A stretch of 64,000 nt of DNA from Escherichia phage phiWec181, in sequence record LC739534.1; one strand, written 5' to 3'. The translations under genes were made by a program, and so were the position numbers. Below, piece by piece: positions 1 through 14,483 of the stretch (its first letter is position 1; each line of letters starts with the position of its first letter). Under the pieces are notes generated by a model. The model saw nothing but the letters and a program-made list of their open reading frames with translations. It searched no databases and was not told the origin of the DNA.

Positions 1-1
1 A

Positions 2-844
2 CTAAGCATGACGGATTTGGCAAACGAAGCACAGGTCAAAAGTTTGGTGGTAGAATGCAACCCTGATTTCATTATTCACTTAGCGGCAGAGAGTCATGTG
101 GACAACTCTATCAAAAATCCACGAGCTTTCATCGACTCCAATATCATCGGTACATATAATTTACTGGAAGCTGCGAGACTACTCCCAAGGAATAAGCTGA
201 AGATGTTTGTACACGTCTCCACAGACGAAGTGTACGGCGATATGGCAGACTCTGGCGCTCCCTTTACCGAAGAGACAGCATATACTCCTTCAAGCCCGTA
301 CAGCGCGTCCAAGGCGGCTTCTGATCATCTTGTGAAAGCTTGGCACCGTACTTATGACTTGCCTGTAGTGATAACTAATTGCTCCAATAATTTTGGACCT
401 TACCAATACCCTGAAAAATTGATTCCAAAAGTAATCACAAGCATCTTGACGAACAAAGAAATCCCAGTGTATGGTAAAGGTGATCAGGTACGAGACTGGC
501 TTTTTGTTGAGGACCATGCACGAGCTATTCTTCAGGTAGCTTCTGGCGGCGAACCTGGACAAACTTACAACGTAGGTACACGTAATCCTAAAACCAATAT
601 GGAGATCATCTATATGATTTGTGATTACATGGATGCCGTACACCCGCAAAGTGGAACCTACCCCTCTTCAAGTTTAATAACTTTTGTTGAAGATCGTAAA
701 GGACATGACTTGCATTATGAAATCAACCCTGCTAAGATTGAATCTGAACTGGGTTGGAGTGCAAACTCCACATTTGAACAAGACCTTTACTCTACGATAG
801 AGTGGTATTTAAACAACCCTCAATGGTGGAGAGAAAAGATTTAA
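2..844 (+). CDS. rfbB: dTDP-glucose 4,6-dehydratase (RmlB/RfbB), 5'-truncated at window edge
   Basis: Translation has HLAAESHVD and [13 protein letters not shown] (YxxxK region) typical of RmlB; N-terminal Rossmann part lies upstream of window. Confidence 0.85.
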
Positions 845-852
845 GGAGGGTT

Positions 853-1731
853 ATGAAAGGTATTATTTTGGCTGGAGGAAGTGGAACCCGCCTACATCCA
901 GTAACACGCAGTGTGAGCAAGCAATTGCTCCCTGTGTATGACAAACCTATGATTTATTATCCTTTATCAGTCTTGATGTTGGCAGATATTAAGGATATCT
1001 TAATCATCACAACCCCAGGCGATCAGGAAGATTTTGAGTATCTTCTTGGAGATGGATCTATGTTTGGGATAAAGATCACTTACGCAATGCAGTCTGAACC
1101 ACGAGGTCTTGCAGATGCTTTCATCATTGGTAAAGATTTCATTGGGGAAGATTCTGTTGCCCTTATTTTAGGGGATAACTTGTTCTTCGGACAAAGTTTC
1201 GGAAAACTTCTTATCCAAGCCAGCGAAATGGTGGATGTTTGGGGTGGAGCTTGTATCTTCGGGTATCTGGTGAAAGATCCTGAACGATTCGGTGTTGTTG
1301 AGTTTGGAAGTAATCGCCAAGCTATCTCTATTGAAGAGAAACCGGAACATCCTAAATCAGACTATGCTGTCACGGGTTTGTATTTCTATGACAACTCTGT
1401 TGTTCAACGTGCATTGGAAGTAACCCCTTCCGAGCGTGGAGAACTGGAGATCACAGATATCAATCGCAGCTACCTCGAAGACAGGAAGTTACAAGTTGAA
1501 GTTCTTGGAAGAGGATTCACTTGGTTGGATACAGGGACACACGCCAGTCTAATGGAAGCAGGTCAATTCGTGCAGACTATTGAGAACTGCCAAGGATTGA
1601 AGATTGCGTGCCTGGAAGAGATCGCTTTCAAAAAAGGGTGGATTTCTTTAGAGACTTTGGTGTATCATGGCAACTCATTGAAGAAAACAGAGTACGGGCA
1701 ATATTTGTTAAAATTAGCGGAGGGTAAATGA
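853..1731 (+). CDS. rfbA: glucose-1-phosphate thymidylyltransferase (RmlA/RfbA)
   Basis: N-terminal [12 protein letters not shown] sugar-nucleotidyltransferase motif; SD AAGGAGG upstream of ATG 853. Confidence 0.9.
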
Positions 1732-2288
1732 AAATAAAAGAATTAAGTATTCCTGGTCTGGTTGTCTTTAAACCTCAAGTTTACAAAGATGATCGTGGTT
1801 ACTTCACGGAGACGTTTAACGAGAAGATTTACGAAGAGGTTATTGGCAAACAAACGTTTGTTCAGGATAACCATTCATTCTCTACTTTAGGTGTTCTTCG
1901 CGGAATGCACTTTCAAGTAAACAATCCGCAAGGTAAGCTTGTACGTTGCACACGAGGTGAAGTTTTTGACGTGGCTGTAGATCTTCGTGAAGGTAGTCCA
2001 ACCTTCGGACAATGGGAAGGTGTGATTCTTAGTGGGCGTAACAATAAACAGTTTTGGATTCCACCTGGCTTTGCACATGGTTTTGTTGTAACCTCTTATG
2101 AAGCCAACTTTGAATACAAGTGCACCAACTACTACGATCCGGCATCTGAACGTAGTTTGTTGTGGAACGATCCTACTGTGAATATTGATTGGGGTTTTGA
2201 TATGATTTTCAATGATGAGAATTTTGTACCTATCATTTCGGAAAAGGATGCACAAGCTAAAACACTGAAGGAGCTTATGGAATCATGA
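1728..2288 (+). CDS. rfbC: dTDP-4-dehydrorhamnose 3,5-epimerase (RmlC/RfbC)
   Basis: RmlC-like cupin sequence ([22 protein letters not shown]); start overlaps rfbA stop (ATGA). Confidence 0.85.
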
Positions 2289-3127
2289 AAACATATTTAG
2301 TATTGGGTGGTAATGGTCAATTAGGTCAGGCACTGCGTAAAGTGGTGCCGGAGAATGTGACTTTGGTGTATCCAGAAAAGCGTGTAGATATCACCAGTTT
2401 CGAAGCTGTAAGAAAAGCGATCATGGACACCCCAAATATTAACGGTGTTATCAACTGTGCGGCATACACTGCGGTGGACAAAGCAGAGACAGATGTTGAT
2501 GCAGCTATGGCTGTAAATTTACACGGGGCAGCTAATATTGCTGCCTTCTGTAAGGCTTGGGATATTGACATGGTGCATATTTCTACTGACTATGTGTTCA
2601 ACAGCGATAAACCGTTGTTCCATCAGGATGAACCCAACCCTATCAATGTTTACGGGTTATCTAAAAGTTTGGGTGAAGCTGCTGTTCGTGGTATCTACCA
2701 TAAAGCTTTTATTATCCGCACGGCTTCTGTGTATAGCGAGTTTGGTAACAACTTCCTGAAGACTATGGTGTCTCGTTACAACGATGGTCAAAGAGACTTC
2801 TCGGTAGTTGCAGATCAAACATCTCGACCAACTTATGCCCCAGATTTGGCTAAGATGATTTTCCAAGTGTTGGAAACAGGATATAACACCCGTACTTTGC
2901 ATTACGCTGGGAACATCACTGTTTCGTGGCACCAGTTCGCAAAAATGATATTGACACGTATGCCTGAATCTGTTATTATACACCCGACCTCTGCTGCAAC
3001 CTATAATTCGGCAGCGATGCGACCAGCAAAGTCTATACTAATTACGTCTGGTTGGAACGAACCTTCAAGCGTCGGACAAGGTATTGAAGAATCTTTAGCA
3101 GTATTACTTAATAAGGAGAGAGCATGA
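2285..3127 (+). CDS. rfbD: dTDP-4-dehydrorhamnose reductase (RmlD/RfbD)
   Basis: N-terminal LGGNGQLGQAL dinucleotide-binding motif, RmlD-like length; ATGA overlap with rfbC. Confidence 0.8.
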   Translation: MKTYLVLGGNGQLGQALRKVVPENVTLVYPEKRVDITSFEAVRKAIMDTPNINGVINCAAYTAVDKAETDVDAAMAVNLHGAANIAAFCKAWDIDMVHISTDYVFNSDKPLFHQDEPNPINVYGLSKSLGEAAVRGIYHKAFIIRTASVYSEFGNNFLKTMVSRYNDGQRDFSVVADQTSRPTYAPDLAKMIFQVLETGYNTRTLHYAGNITVSWHQFAKMILTRMPESVIIHPTSAATYNSAAMRPAKSILITSGWNEPSSVGQGIEESLAVLLNKERA

Positions 3128-3384
3128 ATTTTGTAATTTACGGCAAACCAAATTGCCAGTTCTGTGAAATGTCCAAACAACTCTTAACTATGCGTGAAAA
3201 AGAGTTTGAATATCTGACATTAGATCAGGACTATGATTTTGAAGTGATGACTCAAGCAGTGATCGCAGCAACAGGAATTGCACCTCGCACCTTCCCGCAG
3301 ATTTTTGTGGAAGAGCTTGGAGCAGTAACCCACGTAGGCGGTTTTACCGAACTGCGTGATTTCATGGCTCAAATTGCGGAGTAA
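3124..3384 (+). CDS. glutaredoxin/thioredoxin-like protein (NrdC/NrdH-like)
   Basis: 86 aa with CQFC redox motif near N-terminus, same layout as T4 NrdC thioredoxin; ATGA overlap with rfbD. Confidence 0.65.
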   Translation: MNFVIYGKPNCQFCEMSKQLLTMREKEFEYLTLDQDYDFEVMTQAVIAATGIAPRTFPQIFVEELGAVTHVGGFTELRDFMAQIAE

Positions 3385-4883: not shown

Positions 4884-5381
4884 ATGGTACAGACAATTAT
4901 AGATCGGACTGGTATTGATGAATGTTACCAAACTGGGCTTGTGAAGCCTAACGAGTTCCGACAGATTTGCGTGAATCATATTGAGAAAGAAATTGCACTA
5001 ACTTTGGAGAACCTTACTCTCCGAGACAAGCTGTCAATGTTTGTGGCTTGGTGTAAAGGTGAAGATTGGTTATTGGCCCATTTTCAAGAACTTTCTGATA
5101 GTCAAGAAGGCTTATATGAATGTATAATAGGAATAGCTGGCTCCAATCCTGAACTTCTCCATTTGGAAGAAGAAGAGGCGAAGTTATTGTTCTTAAGCAA
5201 CATGTTCAATCGTAAAGCATTGCTTGTTCGTGAGTGTAGTGATCTTTTAAATCATCCACTGGCGATCACAAACGAAATACTGGTTGACAAAGAGACATTA
5301 CGTGCGATAGACTATCTGCGCAAGTATGTCAACGGCGGGAAAGCAGTTCTTAAAACATTAACAGAGGAGGAAGCAGAATGA
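4884..5381 (+). CDS. hypothetical protein (165 aa)
   Basis: ORF with SD GGGAGGG upstream; no recognisable motif. Confidence 0.5.
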   Translation: MVQTIIDRTGIDECYQTGLVKPNEFRQICVNHIEKEIALTLENLTLRDKLSMFVAWCKGEDWLLAHFQELSDSQEGLYECIIGIAGSNPELLHLEEEEAKLLFLSNMFNRKALLVRECSDLLNHPLAITNEILVDKETLRAIDYLRKYVNGGKAVLKTLTEEEAE

Positions 5382-6067
5382 CTACAATTATCGCAACCAA
5401 AAACAAGATCCTTAGCGACGGTAAAGTAACTTTCGGTGGTCGTGTAGATTCAACCAATTTCAAGAAAGTACGTAAGATTGGGGATTATCTCGTAGGTGGC
5501 GCAGGGCGTTTGACTTCGGTATTAGCTTTCTTCCAGTGGTTCGAACAGAACCTGCAATGTGAAGCGGCGCGTGAGGCAGTGCCTGGGTTGATGATCAGTT
5601 CTAACCCTGATCGTGAAGATGAAGAGTTTATTGCTCTCGTTGTTCACCCAGACGGACGTATTTTCCTGCATGAAGGTAATGATCCTACTCGTGCATACCC
5701 AATCGACGAAGAATACTACGCAGTAGGTAGTGGTTCCGATTTCGCGCTCGCAGCACTGGACGGCGGTGCTTCTCCAGAAGCTGCTATGGAGGTTGCCAAG
5801 AAGCGTGACGCATACTCCGGTGGCGAAACCTTCGTTGAAGAATTAGATGAGATCATTGAACTGACTGACGAAGATCTCGAAAACTTCACCAAACAAGAAC
5901 TGATCAACCTGCTCAAGTTTGGTGATCCTTCTGGTGAAGAAACTCCTCGTGACGTGGCAGGTGACGAGACGGTAGAAGAAGAGGTTGCTGTAGAAAAAGA
6001 CTTGACTTCTAAACCGGAAAATATTAATCTCGTAAACGTAGCGGATTTCGACAATCCCGCTGCTTAA
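5378..6067 (+). CDS. HslV-like N-terminal-nucleophile peptidase with acidic C-terminal extension
   Basis: Starts MTTII (Thr after Met), KVRKI and AVGSGSDFALAAL resemble HslV MTTIV/KVRRL/AIGSGG; ~50 extra acidic residues at C-terminus. Confidence 0.6.
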   Translation: MTTIIATKNKILSDGKVTFGGRVDSTNFKKVRKIGDYLVGGAGRLTSVLAFFQWFEQNLQCEAAREAVPGLMISSNPDREDEEFIALVVHPDGRIFLHEGNDPTRAYPIDEEYYAVGSGSDFALAALDGGASPEAAMEVAKKRDAYSGGETFVEELDEIIELTDEDLENFTKQELINLLKFGDPSGEETPRDVAGDETVEEEVAVEKDLTSKPENINLVNVADFDNPAA

Positions 6068-6073
6068 TAAAAC

Positions 6074-6096
6074 TGCCCCTTCGGGGGCATTTCTTA
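6074..6096 (+). terminator. rho-independent terminator
   Basis: GCCCC-TTCG-GGGGC hairpin followed by TTTCTT directly after CDS stop. Confidence 0.6.
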
Positions 6097-6112
6097 CACA
6101 GAGGAGATTATT

Positions 6113-6550
6113 ATGTTGAACGTTCCTGTTAAATTCGTCGATAGCTGTGTTAATGCTTACCAACAAACTTGTAAACGTGCCTCAAACTGTTTGCAGTCTT
6201 TGATTCAAACGCGGTACGTGATCCAAAAGAAAAGAAAGTGGTTTGGTAAGGATTCTTATAGTGTTAATGCGTTTGGGGAGTATCAACTCCAATATGACGA
6301 TAACATGCAGCACATCTTAGAGTTTTTACTGATAAAAGATAAAATCTCCCCTGCGGATTACCAGTTACTTAAATTCTACGATCAGAGTTTGTCTATTGAG
6401 GAAGTTATTGAAGATATCCTTTCTCGTAAGACAGATAAGAACACTATTGGTATTACAAACTTAGAGATGCAATTGCTTAATGAGATCTTTTTGTTTGTGG
6501 AAGATGAGTCTGTAACTAAGGAGGAGCTTTTAAATGGCTTTAAGCTATGA
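6113..6550 (+). CDS. hypothetical protein (145 aa)
   Basis: ORF with SD GAGGAG upstream. Confidence 0.5.
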   Translation: MLNVPVKFVDSCVNAYQQTCKRASNCLQSLIQTRYVIQKKRKWFGKDSYSVNAFGEYQLQYDDNMQHILEFLLIKDKISPADYQLLKFYDQSLSIEEVIEDILSRKTDKNTIGITNLEMQLLNEIFLFVEDESVTKEELLNGFKL

Positions 6551-7043
6551 TCGTCCAGAGTCCGATTACTATCCGACTCCGCAAAAAGCGATTAACTCGT
6601 TATTTAGCATTATTGATTTTAAAAATTTGAAAGAGGAAGGATTTACATTTGCAGAACCGTGTAAAGGACAAGCAGCGGCTATTTACCGTCACTTCCCTGA
6701 AGGTTCTCAGTATTGTGAGCTTGAAGAAGGTAAAGATTATTTTAGTCACGTATGGGAAAATCGTCCCGACATTATAATCACTAACCCCCCGTTCAAGCTG
6801 GCATTAGAGTTCTTGGAAAAGAGCTTGAAAGAAGCAGACGTATCAGTCTACCTGCTTCGCTTGGGATTCCTTGAGTCAAAGAAACGTCGAGCGTTTCATC
6901 AAGAAAACCCACCTACGAATTTGATTGTACTCTCCGAACGTCCTTCGTTCGTAGCGGGTGGAACAGATAAGACAGCGTATGCTTGGTACGTATACGATCC
7001 AAAACAAATTTTGGGTCTAACTCAACCATTTTATTTCGTTTAA
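6534..7043 (+). CDS. putative DNA N6-adenine methyltransferase (small, NPPF motif)
   Basis: IITNPPF (motif IV (D/N)PP(F/Y)) preceded by FAEPCKG AdoMet-binding-like motif and DYYPTP. Confidence 0.5.
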   Translation: MALSYDRPESDYYPTPQKAINSLFSIIDFKNLKEEGFTFAEPCKGQAAAIYRHFPEGSQYCELEEGKDYFSHVWENRPDIIITNPPFKLALEFLEKSLKEADVSVYLLRLGFLESKKRRAFHQENPPTNLIVLSERPSFVAGGTDKTAYAWYVYDPKQILGLTQPFYFV

Positions 7044-7053
7044 GGAGCACACT

Positions 7054-7290
7054 ATGGCTAAATTTATTATGACCGTTTCTATTGATTTTGATGATGAGGA
7101 CGGAGGCATTAACTTAGGTATTGCTCAGAACCTGGAAGGGGATTTGAACCCGACAGAAGCAGCTATGGCGGTATTCTTTAAAGATGCCATAACAGCCACA
7201 GCAACGCATTCTGCAAATCAAACTGTAGATTACGGTAGCATGGTTCAAGCCTTGGTTGATGCTCAAAACGGTGAAGATTGGGATGATTAA
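7054..7290 (+). CDS. hypothetical protein (78 aa)
   Basis: ORF with SD AAGGAG upstream. Confidence 0.45.
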   Translation: MAKFIMTVSIDFDDEDGGINLGIAQNLEGDLNPTEAAMAVFFKDAITATATHSANQTVDYGSMVQALVDAQNGEDWDD

Positions 7291-7493
7291 TGGCTTACAA
7301 TTATTATTGCGTTTACGCAAATGAAGCAAAGAAAGGCGACACTGGCACTAATGTCTATGCAGAATCAGAAATACATGCAAAAGAAATTGGTGCGATCCTT
7401 CTGTCACGTTGGACAGGTGGTAACTATTCTGCTGCGGATTTGTTCGCAGAAATGGATGACACCATCCAAGAAGATACCATCACCACAACCTGA
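7290..7493 (+). CDS. hypothetical protein (67 aa)
   Basis: ORF start overlaps previous stop (TAATG). Confidence 0.4.
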   Translation: MAYNYYCVYANEAKKGDTGTNVYAESEIHAKEIGAILLSRWTGGNYSAADLFAEMDDTIQEDTITTT

Positions 7494-7515
7494 TATTGCT
7501 TGAAGTAGTTGGTAC

Positions 7516-7545
7516 TCTCCTTGTTTCGGCAAGGAGGGTATTTTT
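7516..7545 (+). terminator. rho-independent terminator
   Basis: CTCCTTG-TTTCGG-CAAGGAG hairpin followed by GGTATTTTT. Confidence 0.5.
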
Positions 7546-7557
7546 AAGGAGGAAATT

Positions 7558-7749
7558 ATGCAGGAGAATGAAGAGATAGTTGTTAAAAAGTTCCCGACAC
7601 GTACACAGGCAGTCAACTTTGCCTCTGATTTGCTTTTGGATGTGGAAGGAGTTCTCATTAGACATGAAGGGGATTCCTGGAATGTCTCTTATAATGTAAA
7701 CAGATCAATTATATATTTAGGAGAAGAGAACTTCTCTCGTATAGAGTGA
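7558..7749 (+). CDS. hypothetical protein (63 aa)
   Basis: SD AAGGAGG 5 nt upstream of ATG. Confidence 0.45.
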   Translation: MQENEEIVVKKFPTRTQAVNFASDLLLDVEGVLIRHEGDSWNVSYNVNRSIIYLGEENFSRIE

Positions 7750-7763
7750 TCGAAGGAGCAATT

Positions 7764-8336
7764 ATGCGTTCTACTTACACAGGTAAGATTAATTCTGGTA
7801 TCATTTTAGCAGCAGCAGGAATCATCAGCAAAACTTTCAAAGTGGCAAACCTACCAGAGTGTGTAGATTTTGACCACGTATTCAATCCATTAAATCCTTC
7901 TCGTTGTGTTGTTCGTAGCAACGTTGAGAATCCAAATGAGAACTTGTTTTATGTAACATCACCTTCACAAAGTATTCTAAACCAAGTGGAGGCTAAAATT
8001 ATTACCGAAGGTAGTTATTTCTCATTGCTACCTTGTAAATCGGTGGAGATTGAAGATAGTATCACCTTCGCAAATAACTTGGTCTTGACCATGTTCATGG
8101 TTTCTGATAAAGACTGTGGAGACGATATGGTTTTAGCTGTAAGGAATGTTTATGACACATTGGGTATTGCTTATAGCTGTAAGTTGTGCGATGATTATAA
8201 ATCTTGTTCAGACTTTTACATAAATGGTGTTCGGGTATGCCGTGTTGAATCCTACTGGGTGCAAGACACATACATAACAGTAGCGAACGTGATCAATGAA
8301 CCTATGTTCAGCCACGCTTTAGCGTTAATCATTTGA
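7764..8336 (+). CDS. hypothetical protein (190 aa), Cys-rich C-terminal half
   Basis: SD GAAGGAG upstream of ATG 7764; ORF-track start 7746 lacks SD. Confidence 0.5.
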   Translation: MRSTYTGKINSGIILAAAGIISKTFKVANLPECVDFDHVFNPLNPSRCVVRSNVENPNENLFYVTSPSQSILNQVEAKIITEGSYFSLLPCKSVEIEDSITFANNLVLTMFMVSDKDCGDDMVLAVRNVYDTLGIAYSCKLCDDYKSCSDFYINGVRVCRVESYWVQDTYITVANVINEPMFSHALALII

Positions 8337-8346
8337 GGAGGAAGGA

Positions 8347-8676
8347 ATGGAAATTACTACAGAACAGGCTCTTATCGACGAAGGGCGTAAAATCTTAGAG
8401 AAGCATTTGGGAGATATACATCAAACCCCTGGCTACTTAGGGTGGCGCATGGTTGAAGCTGTAGATTTCCTTCCTCGTACAAAACAAGACGTTGAAATGC
8501 GTTCTCTGTTCTTGCTTGTCAAAGTAGACGGGGATACGCCTTTCAAACTCGCAGCTTCACACATTGAGAAGGTGGAGGAGAAAGCTTATTCAGAGTTTGC
8601 CGAACTCGTATTACAGGAGGATCTCGAAGGGAAGGTAAACATTTTTATTTTTCTGGATTTTGAGGAGGAGATATGA
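8347..8676 (+). CDS. hypothetical protein (109 aa)
   Basis: SD GGAGGAAGGA upstream. Confidence 0.5.
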   Translation: MEITTEQALIDEGRKILEKHLGDIHQTPGYLGWRMVEAVDFLPRTKQDVEMRSLFLLVKVDGDTPFKLAASHIEKVEEKAYSEFAELVLQEDLEGKVNIFIFLDFEEEI

Positions 8677-9410
8677 TTTTATATAAAGAGATTACCGTGG
8701 AGCAGGATCAAGACCTCTTCATCATCGGGGACTTACATGGTTGCTACGATCTTTACTTGAAAGGTAAGAATTATCTTGGTATCCGAGATACAGATGTGGT
8801 TGTGTCTCTCGGAGATTTGACAGATCGCGGTAAACAAAACTTCAAATGTGTTGTGGAATTTACACGCAAAGAGAATCGTTATGCGCTTTGTGGTAATCAC
8901 GAAGATATGATGATTAAAGGCTTACTGGAAGGGGATCGTCGTTACTACGAATGTTGGTATCAGAACGGTGGTCATACAGTGTTGGCAGAATGTGATGAAG
9001 AAGGCTCTACATTACTTGCTACGATGGTCGAGGACAACCCTGTGGTTTTGGTTGTGAATTACCGAGGTATGAAGTTAGGGTTTATTCATGGCGGATATCC
9101 TTCCTCTTTTGAATATATTCCGCTGACAGACATACCGCACCTACGTATGAACAAAGCAAGAGAGGCTACTTTTGCTGAAGCTTTGATGTGGGATCGTGAC
9201 ATGGTGGAGTGTGCTAAAGAAGGTATGAAACTTCCGGTTGTTATGGGTGTTGATTATGTGTTTCACGGGCACTCTTATGTGAAAGAACCTTTGATCAATG
9301 CTAATCGTGTTTATATGGACACTGGGTCTGTTTTCAATAACAACTTAACGTTTGCCTATTTTGATGCAGACGGTGGACTTCAGTTTTATTCAACTTTACA
9401 GGAGGATTAA
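8673..9410 (+). CDS. Ser/Thr protein phosphatase (calcineurin-like metallophosphoesterase)
   Basis: Ordered GDLHGC, GDLTDRG and GNHE metallophosphatase motifs. Confidence 0.75.
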   Translation: MILYKEITVEQDQDLFIIGDLHGCYDLYLKGKNYLGIRDTDVVVSLGDLTDRGKQNFKCVVEFTRKENRYALCGNHEDMMIKGLLEGDRRYYECWYQNGGHTVLAECDEEGSTLLATMVEDNPVVLVVNYRGMKLGFIHGGYPSSFEYIPLTDIPHLRMNKAREATFAEALMWDRDMVECAKEGMKLPVVMGVDYVFHGHSYVKEPLINANRVYMDTGSVFNNNLTFAYFDADGGLQFYSTLQED

Positions 9411-11808: not shown

Positions 11809-11816
11809 TGTGAGTG

Positions 11817-11845
11817 TTGACAAGACACGAAGAACCTGGTAGACT
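11817..11845 (+). promoter_or_regulatory. sigma70-type promoter
   Basis: TTGACA, 17-nt spacer, TAGACT upstream of CDS 11874. Confidence 0.4.
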
Positions 11846-11873
11846 TGTCTCATCAACTAAGAGAGGAGGATAT

Positions 11874-12812
11874 ATGAAAGTATTAATCGGTAGTCGTGCG
11901 TTGGAAATGATTTGTCGTTCTCGTGGTGTAGAACTGTATCGTGCTTGCGTAGATCTGGATTACCTCTGCACTGAAGAAGAGTGGCAAGCAGAAGCCCAGA
12001 AATTCTCGAAAGATCGTTTCGTAGAAATTGTTGAACGTAAAGGTAACAAAGGGCATATCAAAATGATCGCGGGCGCTCATCTGGAATATGATATTGCACA
12101 ACCAGGCGACTCTACAGATGCTTTGATTCAATACATCAAAGAGAATGCAGATCATCTGCCGCGTATTGGTTATGATGTGGTCGCGCCTTTGGATGTTTTA
12201 TACCTTCTGAAGATGAGTCACCGTTTTAAGAAGGACAGTCCTCACTTCCTGAAAACAATGAAGGATATCCACTTCATGCGTAACCTTGGAGCGAAGATCC
12301 CTGAAGAGTTGGAAGATACATACAAACTGCGTCAGAAGGAGTCCTATAATTACGGGCACCCTAATCTGAACGTGAAAAGTAAAGATTTCTTCAAGGGTGA
12401 TGAAGTGCCTTATGTGTATGATCACGATAGCCTGCACAGAGTTTTAGCTGTAATGGAGGAACCAGCTTACACGAACTACCTAAAGGATGGTAACGAGGTA
12501 ATGACAAGTAAAGATAAGTTCTATGCTGTTGACGAAACTACCAGATTGCTTGGGGTGTTAGAGGAGAGTTTGGTTCTGGCTTCGGAAAGGTGTCTAATAC
12601 CTTTCAACTACAGTGTTACAGGGAAGAAGGCATTTCTTATGGCTTTGACTAAAGTTTGCACTTCTATCACATCGGGCTACTTTCGAGAATATGCTTATGA
12701 AAAGTTCTTCCTTGTGTGTAAGGTATACGATAATATGTATCCTAACGACGAGTGGGTGGATACGTTAAGACAAGCCATAGATAAGGGGGCTGTTGATGTA
12801 TATAAAGCATAA
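11874..12812 (+). CDS. hypothetical protein (312 aa), possible minimal nucleotidyltransferase fold
   Basis: SD GAGAGGAGG upstream; N-terminal LIGSRAL...VDLDYL loosely resembles the GS...DxD NTase motif (weak). Confidence 0.5.
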   Translation: MKVLIGSRALEMICRSRGVELYRACVDLDYLCTEEEWQAEAQKFSKDRFVEIVERKGNKGHIKMIAGAHLEYDIAQPGDSTDALIQYIKENADHLPRIGYDVVAPLDVLYLLKMSHRFKKDSPHFLKTMKDIHFMRNLGAKIPEELEDTYKLRQKESYNYGHPNLNVKSKDFFKGDEVPYVYDHDSLHRVLAVMEEPAYTNYLKDGNEVMTSKDKFYAVDETTRLLGVLEESLVLASERCLIPFNYSVTGKKAFLMALTKVCTSITSGYFREYAYEKFFLVCKVYDNMYPNDEWVDTLRQAIDKGAVDVYKA

Positions 12813-13407
12813 ATATTTAGGAATCACAGACGAAGACTCCAAAGATGGAGAATTCGTCTACACGATCACAGCAGCGAATGGATACTACCAGACCCGTATA
12901 GGGGGTTTATGGAGAGCTTTAAATGCGCGGGTAGGTAAGGGATCATACACAAACGTATGTGTAGATTTTAAAGATTTCAAAGAGTTTGCCGAGAGTGTAA
13001 CAATATTAGCCAATTATAAAACATTAGATAGTTATGGGAACCACTATCACTTAGATAAAGACTTAAAATGTTACAAGAAGGATAAATCTTACAACAAAGA
13101 TTCAGTGCTGTTTATCCCTGGGCACTTAAATACCGCCTTGAAAGGTGTGATCCCTTACTTGGAGTGTGGGGCTACTTGTGGAGTCAGTTTTAGTAAGATT
13201 CGGAATAAGTTTCGAGCCTACTGTAATGATGGCGGTAGTAGACAGATACATTTAGGGTACTTCGAAAGTAAAGAAGCTGCTCAAAAAGCTTGGGTATTGG
13301 AGAAGATAAATCAAATAAAACGTTCCTTAATCAAAGAGAACATCTCGGACGAAGATATTTTGTATTTTACGGGTGTTTTGATAAGCGATTTAGAAGGAGG
13401 TTATTGA
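12793..13407 (+). CDS. AP2-domain-like DNA-binding protein (possible homing-endonuclease relative)
   Basis: C-terminal GVSFSKIRNKFRAYCNDGGSRQIHLGYFESKEAAQKAW matches the AP2 pattern common in phage HNH/AP2 endonucleases; nuclease motif not evident. Confidence 0.4.
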   Translation: MMYIKHKYLGITDEDSKDGEFVYTITAANGYYQTRIGGLWRALNARVGKGSYTNVCVDFKDFKEFAESVTILANYKTLDSYGNHYHLDKDLKCYKKDKSYNKDSVLFIPGHLNTALKGVIPYLECGATCGVSFSKIRNKFRAYCNDGGSRQIHLGYFESKEAAQKAWVLEKINQIKRSLIKENISDEDILYFTGVLISDLEGGY

Positions 13408-13408
13408 T

Positions 13409-13807
13409 ATGGGTTGGTGTGATCAGTCACAAAGTTACTTCAAAGTGACACATGTGGATCTCAACAAGGCAAGAGTGAAGCTGTTGAGTATTGAAAAAGA
13501 AACAGCAGCTATTGACAAACGCCTCCGAGAGAGTAAAGTGGTAATCACTTCTTGGTTCGGACTGAAACGTAAAGTCCTCACGCAGCGAGAGCATGTAATT
13601 AAAAATATGCATGGTTGGGCTTGGTTCCACGACATGGCAAAACACCTGGGGTACATTTCTACTGAAGAACACGACCTCTTGGAGCTACGTTATCGCCTTC
13701 CAGATGTAGAAGATTTAGATTTGTGGATCAGTTCCGAACAAATCTTCTTAACCGAGAGCGATTGGAAGAAAGTCAATATTTGTCTTAAATGGAGGGAGAA
13801 TGAGTAA
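13409..13807 (+). CDS. hypothetical protein (132 aa)
   Basis: ORF with SD GAAGGAGG upstream. Confidence 0.45.
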   Translation: MGWCDQSQSYFKVTHVDLNKARVKLLSIEKETAAIDKRLRESKVVITSWFGLKRKVLTQREHVIKNMHGWAWFHDMAKHLGYISTEEHDLLELRYRLPDVEDLDLWISSEQIFLTESDWKKVNICLKWRENE

Positions 13808-14483
13808 AGTAGTTTTATCAACATTTGATGGATCTGGGATCATGGTACTTCGTTACGCAGAAGCGGGACATAAATGCTATTGTGTAAATGCTGACGAAGG
13901 TGATCACGGGGCTTATGAAGTTCGCATGGAACATCCTAACATCACTTACGTGAACGCATGGATTGATTCCAACTTCAACCCTGAAGATTACGGTATTCCT
14001 AAGCCAGATATTATCTTTGGCTTCCCTCCATGTACCATGCTTGCTGGTTGCGGTAGTAAGCACGAACGTAGCGCAGAAGAGTTGGAAGAAGCTTTGGCTA
14101 ACATTCGTATCGTGGAAGCTTTAGGAAATAAATACAACGTTCCGTGGATGATTGAGAATCCGGTGGGTAAACTGTCAACATTGTGGCGTAAACCGGATTT
14201 CTATTTCGATCCTTACGAATATGGCGGATATCTGTTTGATGAAGAAGGCAGCTTCCACCCTAAAATGCCTACCCGTGACGGTTACACAAAGAAAACCTGT
14301 ATTTGGCATGGCAATGGTTTTGTTAAGCCTGTGAAGAAGCCTGTGGAACATATTGGTTGCTTCTGGGGCTGGAAAAGTTTAGGCGGAGCAAGTGCGAAAA
14401 CAAAGCAACTCCGATCGTTAACTGCTCGCGGTTTTGCTCGTGCTGTGTTTTTATCTAACAACCTTTTAGATAAGGAGGAATGA
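13800..14483 (+). CDS. compact C5-methyltransferase-fold protein (motifs I, IV, VI only)
   Basis: FDGSG (motif I), GFPPC (motif IV PC) and ENPVG (motif VI ENV) in canonical order, but only 227 aa with no room for a TRD or motifs VIII-X. Confidence 0.5.
   Translation: MSKVVLSTFDGSGIMVLRYAEAGHKCYCVNADEGDHGAYEVRMEHPNITYVNAWIDSNFNPEDYGIPKPDIIFGFPPCTMLAGCGSKHERSAEELEEALANIRIVEALGNKYNVPWMIENPVGKLSTLWRKPDFYFDPYEYGGYLFDEEGSFHPKMPTRDGYTKKTCIWHGNGFVKPVKKPVEHIGCFWGWKSLGGASAKTKQLRSLTARGFARAVFLSNNLLDKEE

Follow-up and report, generated by a model that had tools for sequence, protein, structure and literature searches.

A minimal stand-alone class-I amino-methyltransferase of the PHROG 799 family in Escherichia phage phiWec181, a likely orphan DNA N6-adenine methyltransferase

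Closest described systems and the gene in phiWec181

The closest described system is PHROG 799, a family of phage proteins that includes phi92 gp056, phiTE_140, CB7_183 and the rV5-like orthologues. As far as we found, its name, 'DNA methyltransferase', derives from annotation by motifs rather than from experiment, and no biochemically characterised member was found in the literature on the present gene, on phi92 gp056, on the rV5 orthologues or on phage methyltransferases lacking a target-recognition domain (TRD). T1 Dam (PF05869) is GATC-specific and, like the protein described here, a compact phage-borne orphan without a discrete TRD. The gamma-class type II/IIG enzymes, represented by M.TaqI and by the Pfam families Eco57I (PF07669), N6_Mtase (PF02384) and EcoRI_methylase (PF13651), share the motif order X (TP), I, IV (NPPY/F). 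M.TaqI chains in the PDB comprise 382–394 residues and include a C-terminal TRD, whereas the protein described here has 169 and lacks this domain entirely. Adenine-N6 methyltransferases of RNA (KsgA/Dim1, Erm, TrmM/TrmN6, METTL5/PH1948) have the same fold and an NPP-aromatic type of chemistry, and PH1948 and TrmM are of similar size, but they bind RNA through C-terminal or partner modules, of which the present protein has none, and the present gene occurs in a context of phage DNA metabolism. Hia5, Hin1523 and M.EcoGII are non-specific phage- or prophage-borne orphan adenine methyltransferases.

The stretch of DNA analysed, referred to as the window, comprises 64,000 nucleotides (64 kb) of Escherichia phage phiWec181 (accession no. 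LC739534.1), and the 4 kb of it that were tested showed 100% identity to Escherichia phage phiWec179 (Stephanstirmvirinae). The open reading frame (ORF) of 169 aa was present exactly where the original prediction had placed it, with an ATG start and a TAA stop that lies within the coordinates in Table 1. It is preceded by a strong Shine-Dalgarno sequence and is probably co-transcribed and translationally coupled with the 145-aa ORF that overlaps its start. The proposal of a compact methyltransferase, with a motif IV of the amino-methyltransferase type and a motif for SAM binding, was borne out by a match to the PHROG 799 HMM (E = 3e-54, 185.9 bits, residues 4–157). The protein is thus a direct member of this family, of the same size, with the same motifs and in the same stand-alone phage context, and showed no structural difference except that motif I is one residue longer in the window clade, which has K-G-Q-A-A-A-I-Y (Q-A-A-A in place of x-G-A) compared to the family consensus K-G-x-G-A-I-Y.

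Table 1. Positions in the window of the methyltransferase gene, its upstream features and the conserved segments of its product
Feature	Residues	Position	Strand	Remarks
145-aa ORF, PHROG 15078 (function unknown)		6113..6550	+	3′ end overlaps methyltransferase start by 17 nt
Shine-Dalgarno AAGGAGG, strong		6518..6524	+	9 nt before ATG; read from sequence
CDS of minimal SAM-dependent amino-methyltransferase, 169 aa, PHROG 799 family		6534..7043	+	ORF list, sequence
Motif X, YYPTP	12–16	6567..6581	+	T15 invariant; Y13 and P16 at least 90% conserved
Motif I, FAEPCKGQAAAIY	39–51	6648..6686	+	E41, P42 and C43 invariant; G45 at least 90%
Acidic segment E62 to D68-Y69, motif II/III positions	62–69	6717..6740	+	E62 and D68 at least 90%; Y69 invariant
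Motif IV, DIIITNPPF	79–87	6768..6794	+	I81, T83, N84, P85 and P86 invariant
RPSF, candidate motif VIII	136–139	6939..6950	+	R136, P137 and F139 invariant
Variable loop VAGGTDKTA, candidate minimal target-recognition loop	140–148	6951..6977	+	function inferred

The family was found to comprise 13,492 cluster representatives, nearly all of 160–220 aa and mainly from phages, with 210 close homologues. Phage contexts were covered by no fewer than 226 loci in IMG/VR and by 531 records of cultured phages, and the family occurs in phages of every size, including ones with genomes of 36–37 kb. Orthologues in phi92, PaulScherrer, WalterGehring, phiTE and CR3 are annotated as DNA or N6-adenine methyltransferase, and naming of the family in GenBank is inconsistent, ranging from 'hypothetical protein' up to 'dimethyladenosine transferase'. 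An identical protein is encoded by phage PsgM04F, which has a near-identical genome and in which the protein was already labelled DNA methyltransferase. Compared to four orthologues (83–89% amino-acid identity) the gene showed a dN/dS of about 0.03, a ratio that is approximate owing to saturated dS; the gene is under strong purifying selection. In phiWec188 a 1-nt deletion truncates the protein to 129 aa, which reflects either a sequencing error or a dispensable gene. Apparent '142-aa truncated orthologues' in the phi92 cluster turned out to be homologues of the upstream ORF that had been drawn into the cluster and not truncated methyltransferases. One representative consists of two tandem copies of the methyltransferase domain, in keeping with action as a dimer, and a fusion to an HNH nuclease occurs in one member.

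Motifs, fold and profile comparisons

The IITNPPF motif on which the gene had been singled out was present at residues 81–87 (nt 6774–6794), within motif IV, which is predicted from the sequence and the structural model to form, after beta-strand 4, the loop that catalyses methylation of an exocyclic amine. Among 268 family representatives 202 had NPPF and 61 had NPPY at this position (263 of the 268 together), and F87 was conserved in at least 90% of the family alignment. In the 64-kb window, the methyltransferase ORF was the single one of at least 90 aa to contain a [DNS]PP[YFWH] motif, and the match is not a chance one. The putative AdoMet-binding segment of the original prediction corresponds to motif I, which matches the nearly invariant family motif F-x-E-P-C-x-G; its E/D-P-C/A core was found in 252 of 268 representatives, and it probably forms the SAM-binding loop after beta-strand 1. 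Motif X, with its TP conserved in 250 of 268 representatives, aligned with the F-Y-T-P segment of HsdM/PacII-type methyltransferases in a profile search against the PDB (E = 0.036–0.045) and would contact the methionine part of SAM. By analogy with the general architecture of class-I methyltransferases, E62 and D68 would contact the ribose and adenine of SAM. RPSF, which we take to be a candidate motif VIII by analogy with M.TaqI, aligned with G-R-L-A-F of T1 Dam in a relaxed hhalign comparison, and its aromatic residue would, as in M.TaqI, stack on the flipped base. At the variable loop that follows, some relatives have an insertion of about 25–30 residues that is rich in Cys (CxxC...CxC) and resembles a zinc ribbon.

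The AlphaFold (AF2) model (pLDDT 90.8, pTM 0.87) showed a class-I methyltransferase fold. Strands were modelled at residues 39–41 before EPCKG and at 80–83 before NPPF, so that a SAM loop after strand 1 and a catalytic loop after strand 4 are predicted, as in class-I (Rossmann-like) SAM-dependent methyltransferases. The segment from motif I to motif IV comprises about 33 residues and is missing helices, and only about 30 residues follow RPSF, forming the last core strands. The block 141–150 had a pLDDT of 78, the lowest outside the N-terminus. No separate TRD was present in the modelled 169-aa protein. A Foldseek search against the PDB gave 943 matches, and the top 50 were all class-I methyltransferases (probability 0.82–1.0). 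The best match was M.TaqI, a gamma-class DNA m6A methyltransferase (E = 3.4e-4, probability 1.0, TMq 0.52); M.BseCI, PacII-M and lmo1582 were also among the top 50, and the top matches were nearly all adenine-N6 methyltransferases. By TMq, the RNA m6A enzymes PH1948 (0.62), KsgA/Dim1 (0.56) and ErmE (0.55) compare with 0.52 for M.TaqI. Structural matches in BFVD included phage proteins named 'DNA N-6-adenine-methyltransferase' with E-values of about 1e-6.

Searches of Pfam, NCBIfam and PDB sequences with the window protein gave no match at threshold. The best Pfam score was for EcoRI_methylase (12.8 bits compared to a cutoff of 26.4), PADLOC reported a Type II methyltransferase (E = 7e-5), and the best profile match in the PDB was an Erm rRNA methyltransferase (E = 0.01). 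Sub-threshold Pfam matches among 56 family members were almost all to DNA m6A families, namely EcoRI_methylase (42 members), Eco57I (7), Dam (7) and N6_Mtase (6), with Eco57I and N6_Mtase thus appearing in few relatives; the gamma-class matches lie on the motif IV/V region with all scores below the cutoffs. Further weak matches were to MTS in 12 and to N6-adenineMlase in 3 of the 56 members. The motif IV stretch underlies every weak Pfam and PADLOC methyltransferase match, and a bridge to a curated family via the most diverged members likewise yielded sub-threshold matches only. None of the RNA methyltransferase families in Pfam (RrnaAD, TrmN6, METTL5 types) matched any of the 56 members at E ≤ 0.1. 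Profile searching, an outcome of which could have spoken against the original prediction, gave no assignment to RNA or protein methyltransferases, and the sole non-DNA family was Pfam MTS, below threshold and on motif IV alone.

The comparison with T1 Dam was carried further with profiles. The PF05869 HMM did not match the window protein, and the best of the 56 relatives reached E = 0.0011, below the 28.1-bit cutoff, while T1 Dam as positive control scored 236.5 bits. With hhalign, the probability of a match to T1 Dam was 1.5% for the single sequence and 10% for shallow profiles, and it rose to 70% (E = 4e-5) for a family profile of 256 sequences, in an under-powered test with a T1 Dam profile that is not diverse (viral scans and a large protein search gave relatives of at least 61% identity only). 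The confident core covered 32 columns, and a relaxed alignment was collinear over 134 columns, in which both proteins show, in this order, (W/Y)-x-T-P, a motif I of acidic character, NPP(Y/F) with a helix after it, an 'LL' strand and R-x-x-F. T1 Dam differs by about 50 extra N-terminal residues, by a longer insert before R-L-A-F and by LDAAAS in motif I, where the window protein has EPCKG. The likeness to T1 Dam, as read from these alignments, is a tentative, remote similarity, and a 70% hhalign probability is not membership of PF05869.

Neighbourhood and restriction

The orphan status proposed for the gene held across more than 80 loci, which showed no restriction endonuclease or other conserved partner beside it. 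Outside the window's own lineage, no neighbour family was conserved in 84 loci, the only recurrent neighbour being a 5′-3′ exonuclease (10 loci), and no restriction endonuclease was found in the Pfam-annotated neighbourhoods of three diverged members. A restriction-modification (RM) operon or conserved partner was therefore rejected for the loci examined. The upstream 145-aa ORF was rejected as a specificity subunit since it is kept in the window's own lineage only (14 of 84 loci). Members of the family are often located among DNA-replication genes or beside other DNA methyltransferases, and one locus has a member adjoining a canonical Dam. In the window, the neighbours of the methyltransferase gene belong to PHROGs of unknown function. 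A link with the nearby dTDP-sugar genes was dismissed, as no co-conservation was found and NPPF chemistry differs from that of sugar methyltransferases. A tRNA link was also dismissed, as no tRNA genes are present within the 64-kb window and the label 'histidyl tRNA synthetase', met downstream, derives from a PHROG without Pfam support. A scan for promoters and terminators gave nothing above chance; one hairpin was observed at 6074–6089, after an HslV-like gene.

It had also been proposed that, together with a C5-methyltransferase-like gene, the gene implies an investment of the phage in DNA modification against restriction. The companion gene was found at 13800..14483 (+) and encodes 227 aa with a match to PHROG 757 'DNA methyltransferase' (E = 1e-82). 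The anti-restriction rationale was weakened. Vequintavirinae and phi92-like phages were described as 'exceptionally susceptible' to RM systems in the BASEL study, which used a panel of six RM systems based on adenine methylation, EcoKI, EcoCFT_I, EcoRI, EcoRV, EcoP1_I and EcoCFT_II (PMC8594841), and both groups carry family members (e.g., PaulScherrer and WalterGehring), at about 83% identity in the Vequintavirinae (rV5-like) and 44% in the phi92-like phages. Any DNA methylation by these enzymes thus gives no broad protection. A TRD-less enzyme might share the relaxed specificity of Hia5, Hin1523 and M.EcoGII; however, the high sensitivity of the phi92-like and rV5-like carriers to EcoRI, EcoRV, EcoKI, EcoP1 and others speaks against non-specific activity, since genome-wide adenine methylation would be expected to prevent it. 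The window itself showed massive avoidance of restriction sites, which is a different, passive strategy. The gene is accordingly unlikely to serve as a broad anti-restriction device, and a narrow protective or regulatory role, directed at one nuclease class or concerned with replication or packaging, is more plausible.

GATC was the sole 4-bp palindrome clearly in excess in the window (403 sites, observed/expected 1.09), with TGCA (1.04) and GCGC (1.00) at expectation. Besides, the ClaI pattern of DNA from phage CB7, which carries the family member CB7_183, was read by its authors as Dam-type methylation (PMC7344957). Both observations hint weakly at GATC specificity and both are confounded by host Dam.

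Substrate and target selection

Taken on its motifs and fold, the protein is most likely a stand-alone minimal class-I SAM-dependent amino-methyltransferase acting as an orphan DNA N6-adenine methyltransferase on a defined short site. Binding of SAM would involve the Y-x-T-P segment near the N-terminus, the loop with E-P-C-x-G and the acidic residues E62 and D68, and the target adenine would be flipped into a pocket formed by N84-P-P-F87 and F139 and then methylated at N6. As the protein has no TRD, sequence recognition must come from short loops; it may occur above all via residues 140–148, where some relatives have the zinc-ribbon-like insert, and possibly with dimerisation. The outcome would be that replicating phage DNA is methylated at a short defined site, GATC being one candidate. 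A point against this reading is that, without a TRD, sequence-specific DNA recognition lacks an explanation.

The original prediction of a DNA N6-adenine methyltransferase stood with respect to the class-I fold and the top PDB matches, which are nearly all adenine-N6 enzymes with M.TaqI as the best, whereas the choice of DNA over RNA is not established because RNA m6A enzymes fit the fold about equally and all matches to curated DNA methyltransferase families are sub-threshold. An enzyme placing m6A (or m2G) on tRNA or rRNA of the host or the phage, with its NPPF chemistry tuning translation during infection, would agree with the E-values of KsgA/Dim1, Erm, TrmM (tRNA m6A37), METTL5-like PH1948 and CAPAM, which lie within tenfold of that of M.TaqI, and with the TM-scores of those enzymes, which equal that of M.TaqI or are better. 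It would also agree with the Erm enzyme at the top of the profile search, the weak matches to MTS, an rRNA/protein small-methyltransferase domain, and the one GenBank relative labelled 'dimethyladenosine transferase'; moreover, RNA methyltransferases of about 170–200 aa without extra domains exist, and TRD-less DNA methyltransferases are unusual. We nevertheless consider RNA an unlikely substrate, as four DNA m6A families appear among the 56 members and RrnaAD and the other RNA families do not even weakly, Y-x-T-P aligns with DNA methyltransferases of the HsdM/PacII type, and T1 Dam is a putative remote homologue. The occurrence in phages of all sizes, often near DNA-replication genes or DNA methyltransferases, the lack of tRNA genes in the window and the HNH nuclease fusion point in the same direction.

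The motif (D/N/S)PP(Y/F) is common to N6-adenine and N4-cytosine enzymes, and sequence cannot reliably separate them, which leaves some room for a DNA methyltransferase acting on N4 of cytosine instead of N6 of adenine. N84 is invariant here, however, and N4-cytosine enzymes typically have SPPY/F. Among the fold matches is the PacII M1M2S complex, which is reported to perform both activities (PMC9613975). The sub-threshold family matches are all adenine-specific and the structural neighbours nearly all adenine-N6 enzymes, and action on cytosine is thus improbable. Least expected of all is a target other than nucleic acid (glutamine or lysine of a protein, or some small molecule), or a role without catalysis, in which a dead enzyme binds SAM and depletes or senses it. 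NPPY-type enzymes do include the glutamine methyltransferase PrmC/HemK, and N6-adenineMlase, weakly matched in a few members, has come to be associated with lysine methylation of proteins; absence of a TRD would fit a substrate other than DNA, and the truncated phiWec188 allele suggests dispensability. Structures of the HemK/PrmC type were, however, absent from the top 50 fold matches, the residues of the catalytic motif are all invariant under strong purifying selection, which argues against a dead enzyme, and all stronger evidence favours nucleic-acid adenine methyltransferases.

A broader reading, which we regard as conceivable though rather doubtful, is that target selection is unconventional, relying on the 9-residue loop, on obligate dimerisation, or on a substrate that is RNA or is DNA in single-stranded or replicating form, with a role other than classical anti-restriction. 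These proteins, bare catalytic domains of about 170 aa in a family of at least 13,000 clusters at 50% identity, would then be the smallest known nucleic-acid amino-methyltransferases.

For the phage itself little changes, as the gene is an ordinary orphan methyltransferase already catalogued in PHROGs. That carriers of the family are among the most restriction-sensitive coliphages tested is a caution against reading every phage methyltransferase as an anti-restriction device. The family is abundant in phages, with thousands of metagenomic clusters, and has no Pfam model; the methylome of a single member would settle how thousands of genes should be annotated and would show how an enzyme of 170 residues without a recognition domain picks its target.

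The methyltransferase gene, its close relatives and its family

The 169-codon ORF and the IITNPPF motif on which the original prediction was built were both recovered in the window with exactly matching position and size. The 145-aa ORF before it runs 17 nt into its start, and among the ORFs of at least 90 aa in the 64-kb window it was the only carrier of a (D/N/S)PP(Y/F/W/H) motif. Except for one hairpin, a promoter and terminator scan at the locus detected nothing beyond chance.

Features of the methyltransferase gene (nucleotides of the window) and of its product (residues); conserved residues are those invariant or nearly invariant in a 56-sequence alignment
Feature	Position	Strand	Remarks
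Methyltransferase CDS	6534..7043	+	ATG start, 169 codons, TAA stop
Shine-Dalgarno AAGGAGG	6518-6524	+	Canonical; 9 nt 5′ of ATG
Hairpin	6074-6089		3′ of HslV-like gene; promoter/terminator scan
Motif X	Y13, T15, P16		Conserved
Presumed AdoMet-binding segment	residues 39-51		FAEPCKGQAAAIY
Motif I	F39, E41, P42, C43, G45		Conserved
Motif II/III positions	E62, D68, Y69		Conserved
IITNPPF	residues 81-87		
Motif IV	D79, I81, T83, N84, P85, P86, F87		Conserved
Other residues	F93, K96, S97; Y106-L-L-R-L; R118		Conserved
Further residues	R136, P137, F139; D145, Y149, W151, D155		Conserved

The 4-kb region at 5000-9000 matched Escherichia phages phiWec179 and phiWec186 at 100% identity, and phiWec188, phiWec190 and the 'Pseudomonas' phage PsgM04F at 97%, all belonging to Stephanstirmvirinae; in PsgM04F the identical protein is already labelled 'DNA methyltransferase'. 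The phiWec188 allele lacks 1 nt of a C-rich run (AAAACCCACC to AAAACCC-CC; about 1905-1912 of its locus L182, equivalent to about 6907-6916 of the window), a frameshift that cuts the product to 129 aa without the RPSF segment and the C-terminus. Since the DNA 3′ of the deletion is otherwise almost identical, either an error in the sequencing or an inactivation that happened very recently would explain it. The 90%-identity cluster with phi92 gp056 also holds many 142-aa proteins, which were considered as truncated orthologues and rejected, as they are homologous to the 145-aa ORF that lies upstream; their inclusion seems to be an artefact of clustering, and gene calls fused across the 17-nt overlap are a possible cause. 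Among the sequence-search matches, H5/H16 (OR584014.1), H21 (OP562383.1) and H25 (MG065656.1) were deposited as 'Pseudomonas', 'Acinetobacter' and 'Campylobacter' phages; these host assignments look doubtful because the records are near-identical to coliphages (DNA identity of at least 97%, or methyltransferase 83-100% identical).

The window protein showed no above-threshold match in Pfam, the sub-threshold matches covering motif IV only (EcoRI_methylase, 12.8 bits, cutoff 26.4; MTS, 12.6 bits, cutoff 23), and neither NCBIfam nor a search of PDB sequences gave a meaningful match. It fell firmly within phrog_799, 'DNA methyltransferase' (E = 3e-54); PHROGs thus already catalogues the family, and the window gene is a further member. 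A word-indexed search gave 210 homologues, every one of about 160-205 aa and without Pfam domains. When 1.84 billion cluster representatives were searched exhaustively with a profile, there were 13,492 matches at E ≤ 1e-3, 6,801 at E ≤ 1e-10 and 343 at E ≤ 1e-30, with lengths of 160-220 aa in almost all among the matches listed. Motif IV reads NPPF in 202 and NPPY in 61 of 268 representatives, and the E/D-P-C/A of motif I and the T-P were present in 252 and 250 of them, respectively. Comparison with orthologues at 83-89% amino-acid identity gave a dN/dS of about 0.03, an approximate value as dS was saturated. Judged from these sequences, the motif conservation and the low dN/dS indicate that the gene is real and that its catalytic motifs are under strong selection.

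At least 226 family loci were confirmed in IMG/VR, and the family was present in 531 cultured-phage records, from phages of Escherichia, Vibrio, Klebsiella, Campylobacter, Aeromonas, Salmonella, Cronobacter, Pectobacterium, Staphylococcus and Listeria. Only three loci turned up when a single genome of each bacterial species was scanned, from which rarity in cells is not firmly established because a single narrow pattern was used. The window gene lies among an HslV-like peptidase gene and PHROGs of unknown function, which are kept only inside the same phage lineage (loci L001-L017). De novo clustering of 962 neighbouring ORFs revealed no partner gene common to the family, the sole recurrent neighbour in diverged loci being a 5′-3′ exonuclease (10 loci); one member adjoins a canonical Dam (PF02086) and others lie amid accessory genes such as NAMPT, RtcB and PARP. 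No restriction endonuclease adjoined a family member in the loci inspected, so the enzyme is an orphan, as originally predicted.

Several other ORFs of the region, all on the + strand, were also inspected. The 196-aa ORF at 7746-8336 is called 'histidyl tRNA synthetase' by PHROG 4806 (E = 1e-47) and by pharokka-style GenBank annotations, a label that looks unreliable because the protein has zero Pfam matches and is far too short for HisRS. Just 5′ of the C5-like methyltransferase region are a DUF7275/DUF7277 protein (11814-12812) and an HNH-type homing-endonuclease-like ORF (12793-13407; PHROG 953, E = 2e-25; weak AP2 domain). The 'C5-MTase-like' companion gene of the original prediction (13800-14483; 227 aa) contains F-P-P-C (motif IV-like) and E-N-P-V-G (motif VI-like), and matched PHROG 757 'DNA methyltransferase' (E = 1e-82), no Pfam family and, over its first ~110 residues only, the PADLOC Type II MTase and DruM cytosine methylase models weakly. 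Like the 169-aa protein, it is much shorter than canonical enzymes and seems to have no recognition domain.

Predicted fold and substrate

A confident AlphaFold2 model of the window protein built on the alignment (pLDDT 90.8, pTM 0.87) predicts a pared-down class-I methyltransferase, which together with the PHROG assignment bears out the methyltransferase part of the original prediction. Motifs I and IV are only about 33 residues apart in the model and about 30 residues follow RPSF, and the modelled protein has no room for a target-recognition domain (TRD) anywhere. Among viral predicted structures, the top matches were family members; other small methyltransferases of phages came next, among them proteins with the name 'DNA N-6-adenine-methyltransferase' (E about 1e-6).

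Foldseek against the PDB ranked M.TaqI first (E = 3.4e-4, TMq 0.52), followed by the further DNA m6A enzymes lmo1582, PacII-M and M.BseCI, but RNA adenine-N6 methyltransferases reached equal or better TM-scores (PH1948/METTL5-like, TMq 0.62; KsgA/Dim1; Erm; TrmM). As DNA and RNA enzymes match alike, the fold supports adenine-N6 chemistry and does not separate a DNA from an RNA substrate. In favour of DNA, a profile search of PDB sequences aligned the N-terminal Y-x-T-P region with F-Y-T-P of HsdM- and PacII-type DNA methyltransferases, although an Erm rRNA methyltransferase (E = 0.01) had a slightly better score. Also counting towards DNA are the PADLOC Type II MTase model (E = 7e-5) and the sub-threshold Pfam matches over 56 members (EcoRI_methylase in 42, Eco57I in 7, Dam PF05869 in 7 and N6_Mtase in 6), among which MTS (12 members) was the sole non-DNA family and no rRNA or tRNA methyltransferase family appeared. 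Thus, of the predicted N6-adenine DNA methyltransferase, the adenine-N6 chemistry is likely, and DNA, with an N4-cytosine variant included, is a reasonably probable substrate.

Restriction and site avoidance

The literature yielded no experimental work on this gene or on an orthologue. EcoKI, EcoCFT_I, EcoRI, EcoRV, EcoP1_I and EcoCFT_II all protect through adenine methylation. These six systems make up the RM panel of the BASEL study, in which Vequintavirinae and phi92-like phages were 'exceptionally susceptible' to RM systems (PMC8594841). Phages of these groups carry family members labelled 'putative N6 adenine methyltransferase': the one in PaulScherrer belongs to a cluster with about 83% identity to the window protein, and the one in WalterGehring is 44% identical. 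The RM sensitivity of phage groups carrying the family speaks against both a non-specific, Hia5/EcoGII-type adenine methylation and a broad anti-restriction effect, and is compatible with a narrow specificity. The anti-restriction role originally proposed is unsupported and, as regards broad protection, weakened.

Enterobacterial hosts would be expected to encode a Dam themselves. For this reason, the ClaI digestion pattern of Pectobacterium phage CB7 DNA, consistent with Dam-type methylation according to its authors (PMC7344957), is only a hint; the CB7 family member, CB7_183, has the same sequence as phiTE_140 and shares 45.5% identity with the window protein.

Within the DNA-metabolism region, a few kb upstream of the methyltransferase gene and at about 1-3130 of the window, lies a dTDP-sugar gene cluster encoding two nucleotide-sugar epimerases and one dTDP-4-dehydrorhamnose 3,5-epimerase, identified by homology with the PsgM04F annotation (L001 2853-6128). 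Olsen et al. speculated that the dTDP-rhamnose pathway of these phages might glycosylate modified nucleotides (PMC7552041), and in BASEL the pathway gave no visible restriction protection (PMC8594841). These genes and the methyltransferase showed no co-conservation.

CTAG was absent from the 64-kb window against about 118 sites expected under a maximal-order Markov model (z = -10.9). It was also missing from the closest-relative loci L001, L003, L004, L007 and L009 (0 in about 113 kb overall), whereas more distant Stephanstirmvirinae loci with the same methyltransferase contained 9-22 CTAG per 8 kb, showing the avoidance to be extreme and clade-specific. Most other 4-bp palindromes in the window were also depleted, including GGCC (29 observed, 106 expected) and GTAC (117 and 219), and eight 6-bp palindromes were at zero (GGATCC, TCCGGA, CTGCAG, CACGTG, GGCGCC, CAGCTG, CCATGG and GCATGC). 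TGCA (O/E 1.04) and GCGC (1.00) were at expectation, and GATC was the sole 4-bp palindrome in clear excess (403 sites, O/E 1.09). The visible anti-restriction investment of the phage is thus site avoidance; the tolerance of GATC is compatible with GATC methylation and does not demonstrate it.

A minimal architecture and its known analogues

Of the families with experimental backing, the compact phage Dam family of T1 (PF05869) is the nearest analogue. T1 Dam methylates GATC and scores 236 bits on the PF05869 model; the window protein showed no match to this model and so does not qualify as a member. The hhalign probability against T1 Dam was 1.5% against a single sequence and 10% with shallow profiles, and rose to 70% (E = 4e-5) when a 256-sequence family profile was compared with a low-diversity T1-Dam profile, the confident core being 32 columns of motif IV and the helix and strand after it. 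Under relaxed settings the two were collinear over 134 columns, pairing TP/TP, EP/LD, NPPF/NPPY, LLRL/LLPA and RPSF/RLAF (window family first). This points to either a remote relationship or convergence on a minimal design, neither of which is proven. Nor does the window protein qualify as a member of the gamma-class families (TaqI/Eco57I, N6_Mtase, EcoRI methylase): its HMM scores are sub-threshold and the defining C-terminal TRD is missing, although its motif order and best fold match are of that type.

Within the family, a subfamily (representatives P0052, P0076, P0089, P0096, P0115, P0118 and P0172) has about 25-30 extra residues, Cys-rich and zinc-ribbon-like, inserted exactly between R-P-x-F and G-T-D. 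In the window protein this site falls at residues 140-148, where the interior of the model is also least confident. The loop may be the minimal recognition element, and dimerisation would be a possible way of reading a site. Further variants are the 560-aa representative P0225, a tandem duplication of two complete domains (first NPPH, second NPPY), and one member fused to an HNH_3 endonuclease domain (L049 3713-5068). What remains novel is the family as a whole, a very large and uncharacterised set of minimal methyltransferases that have neither a TRD nor a Pfam model.
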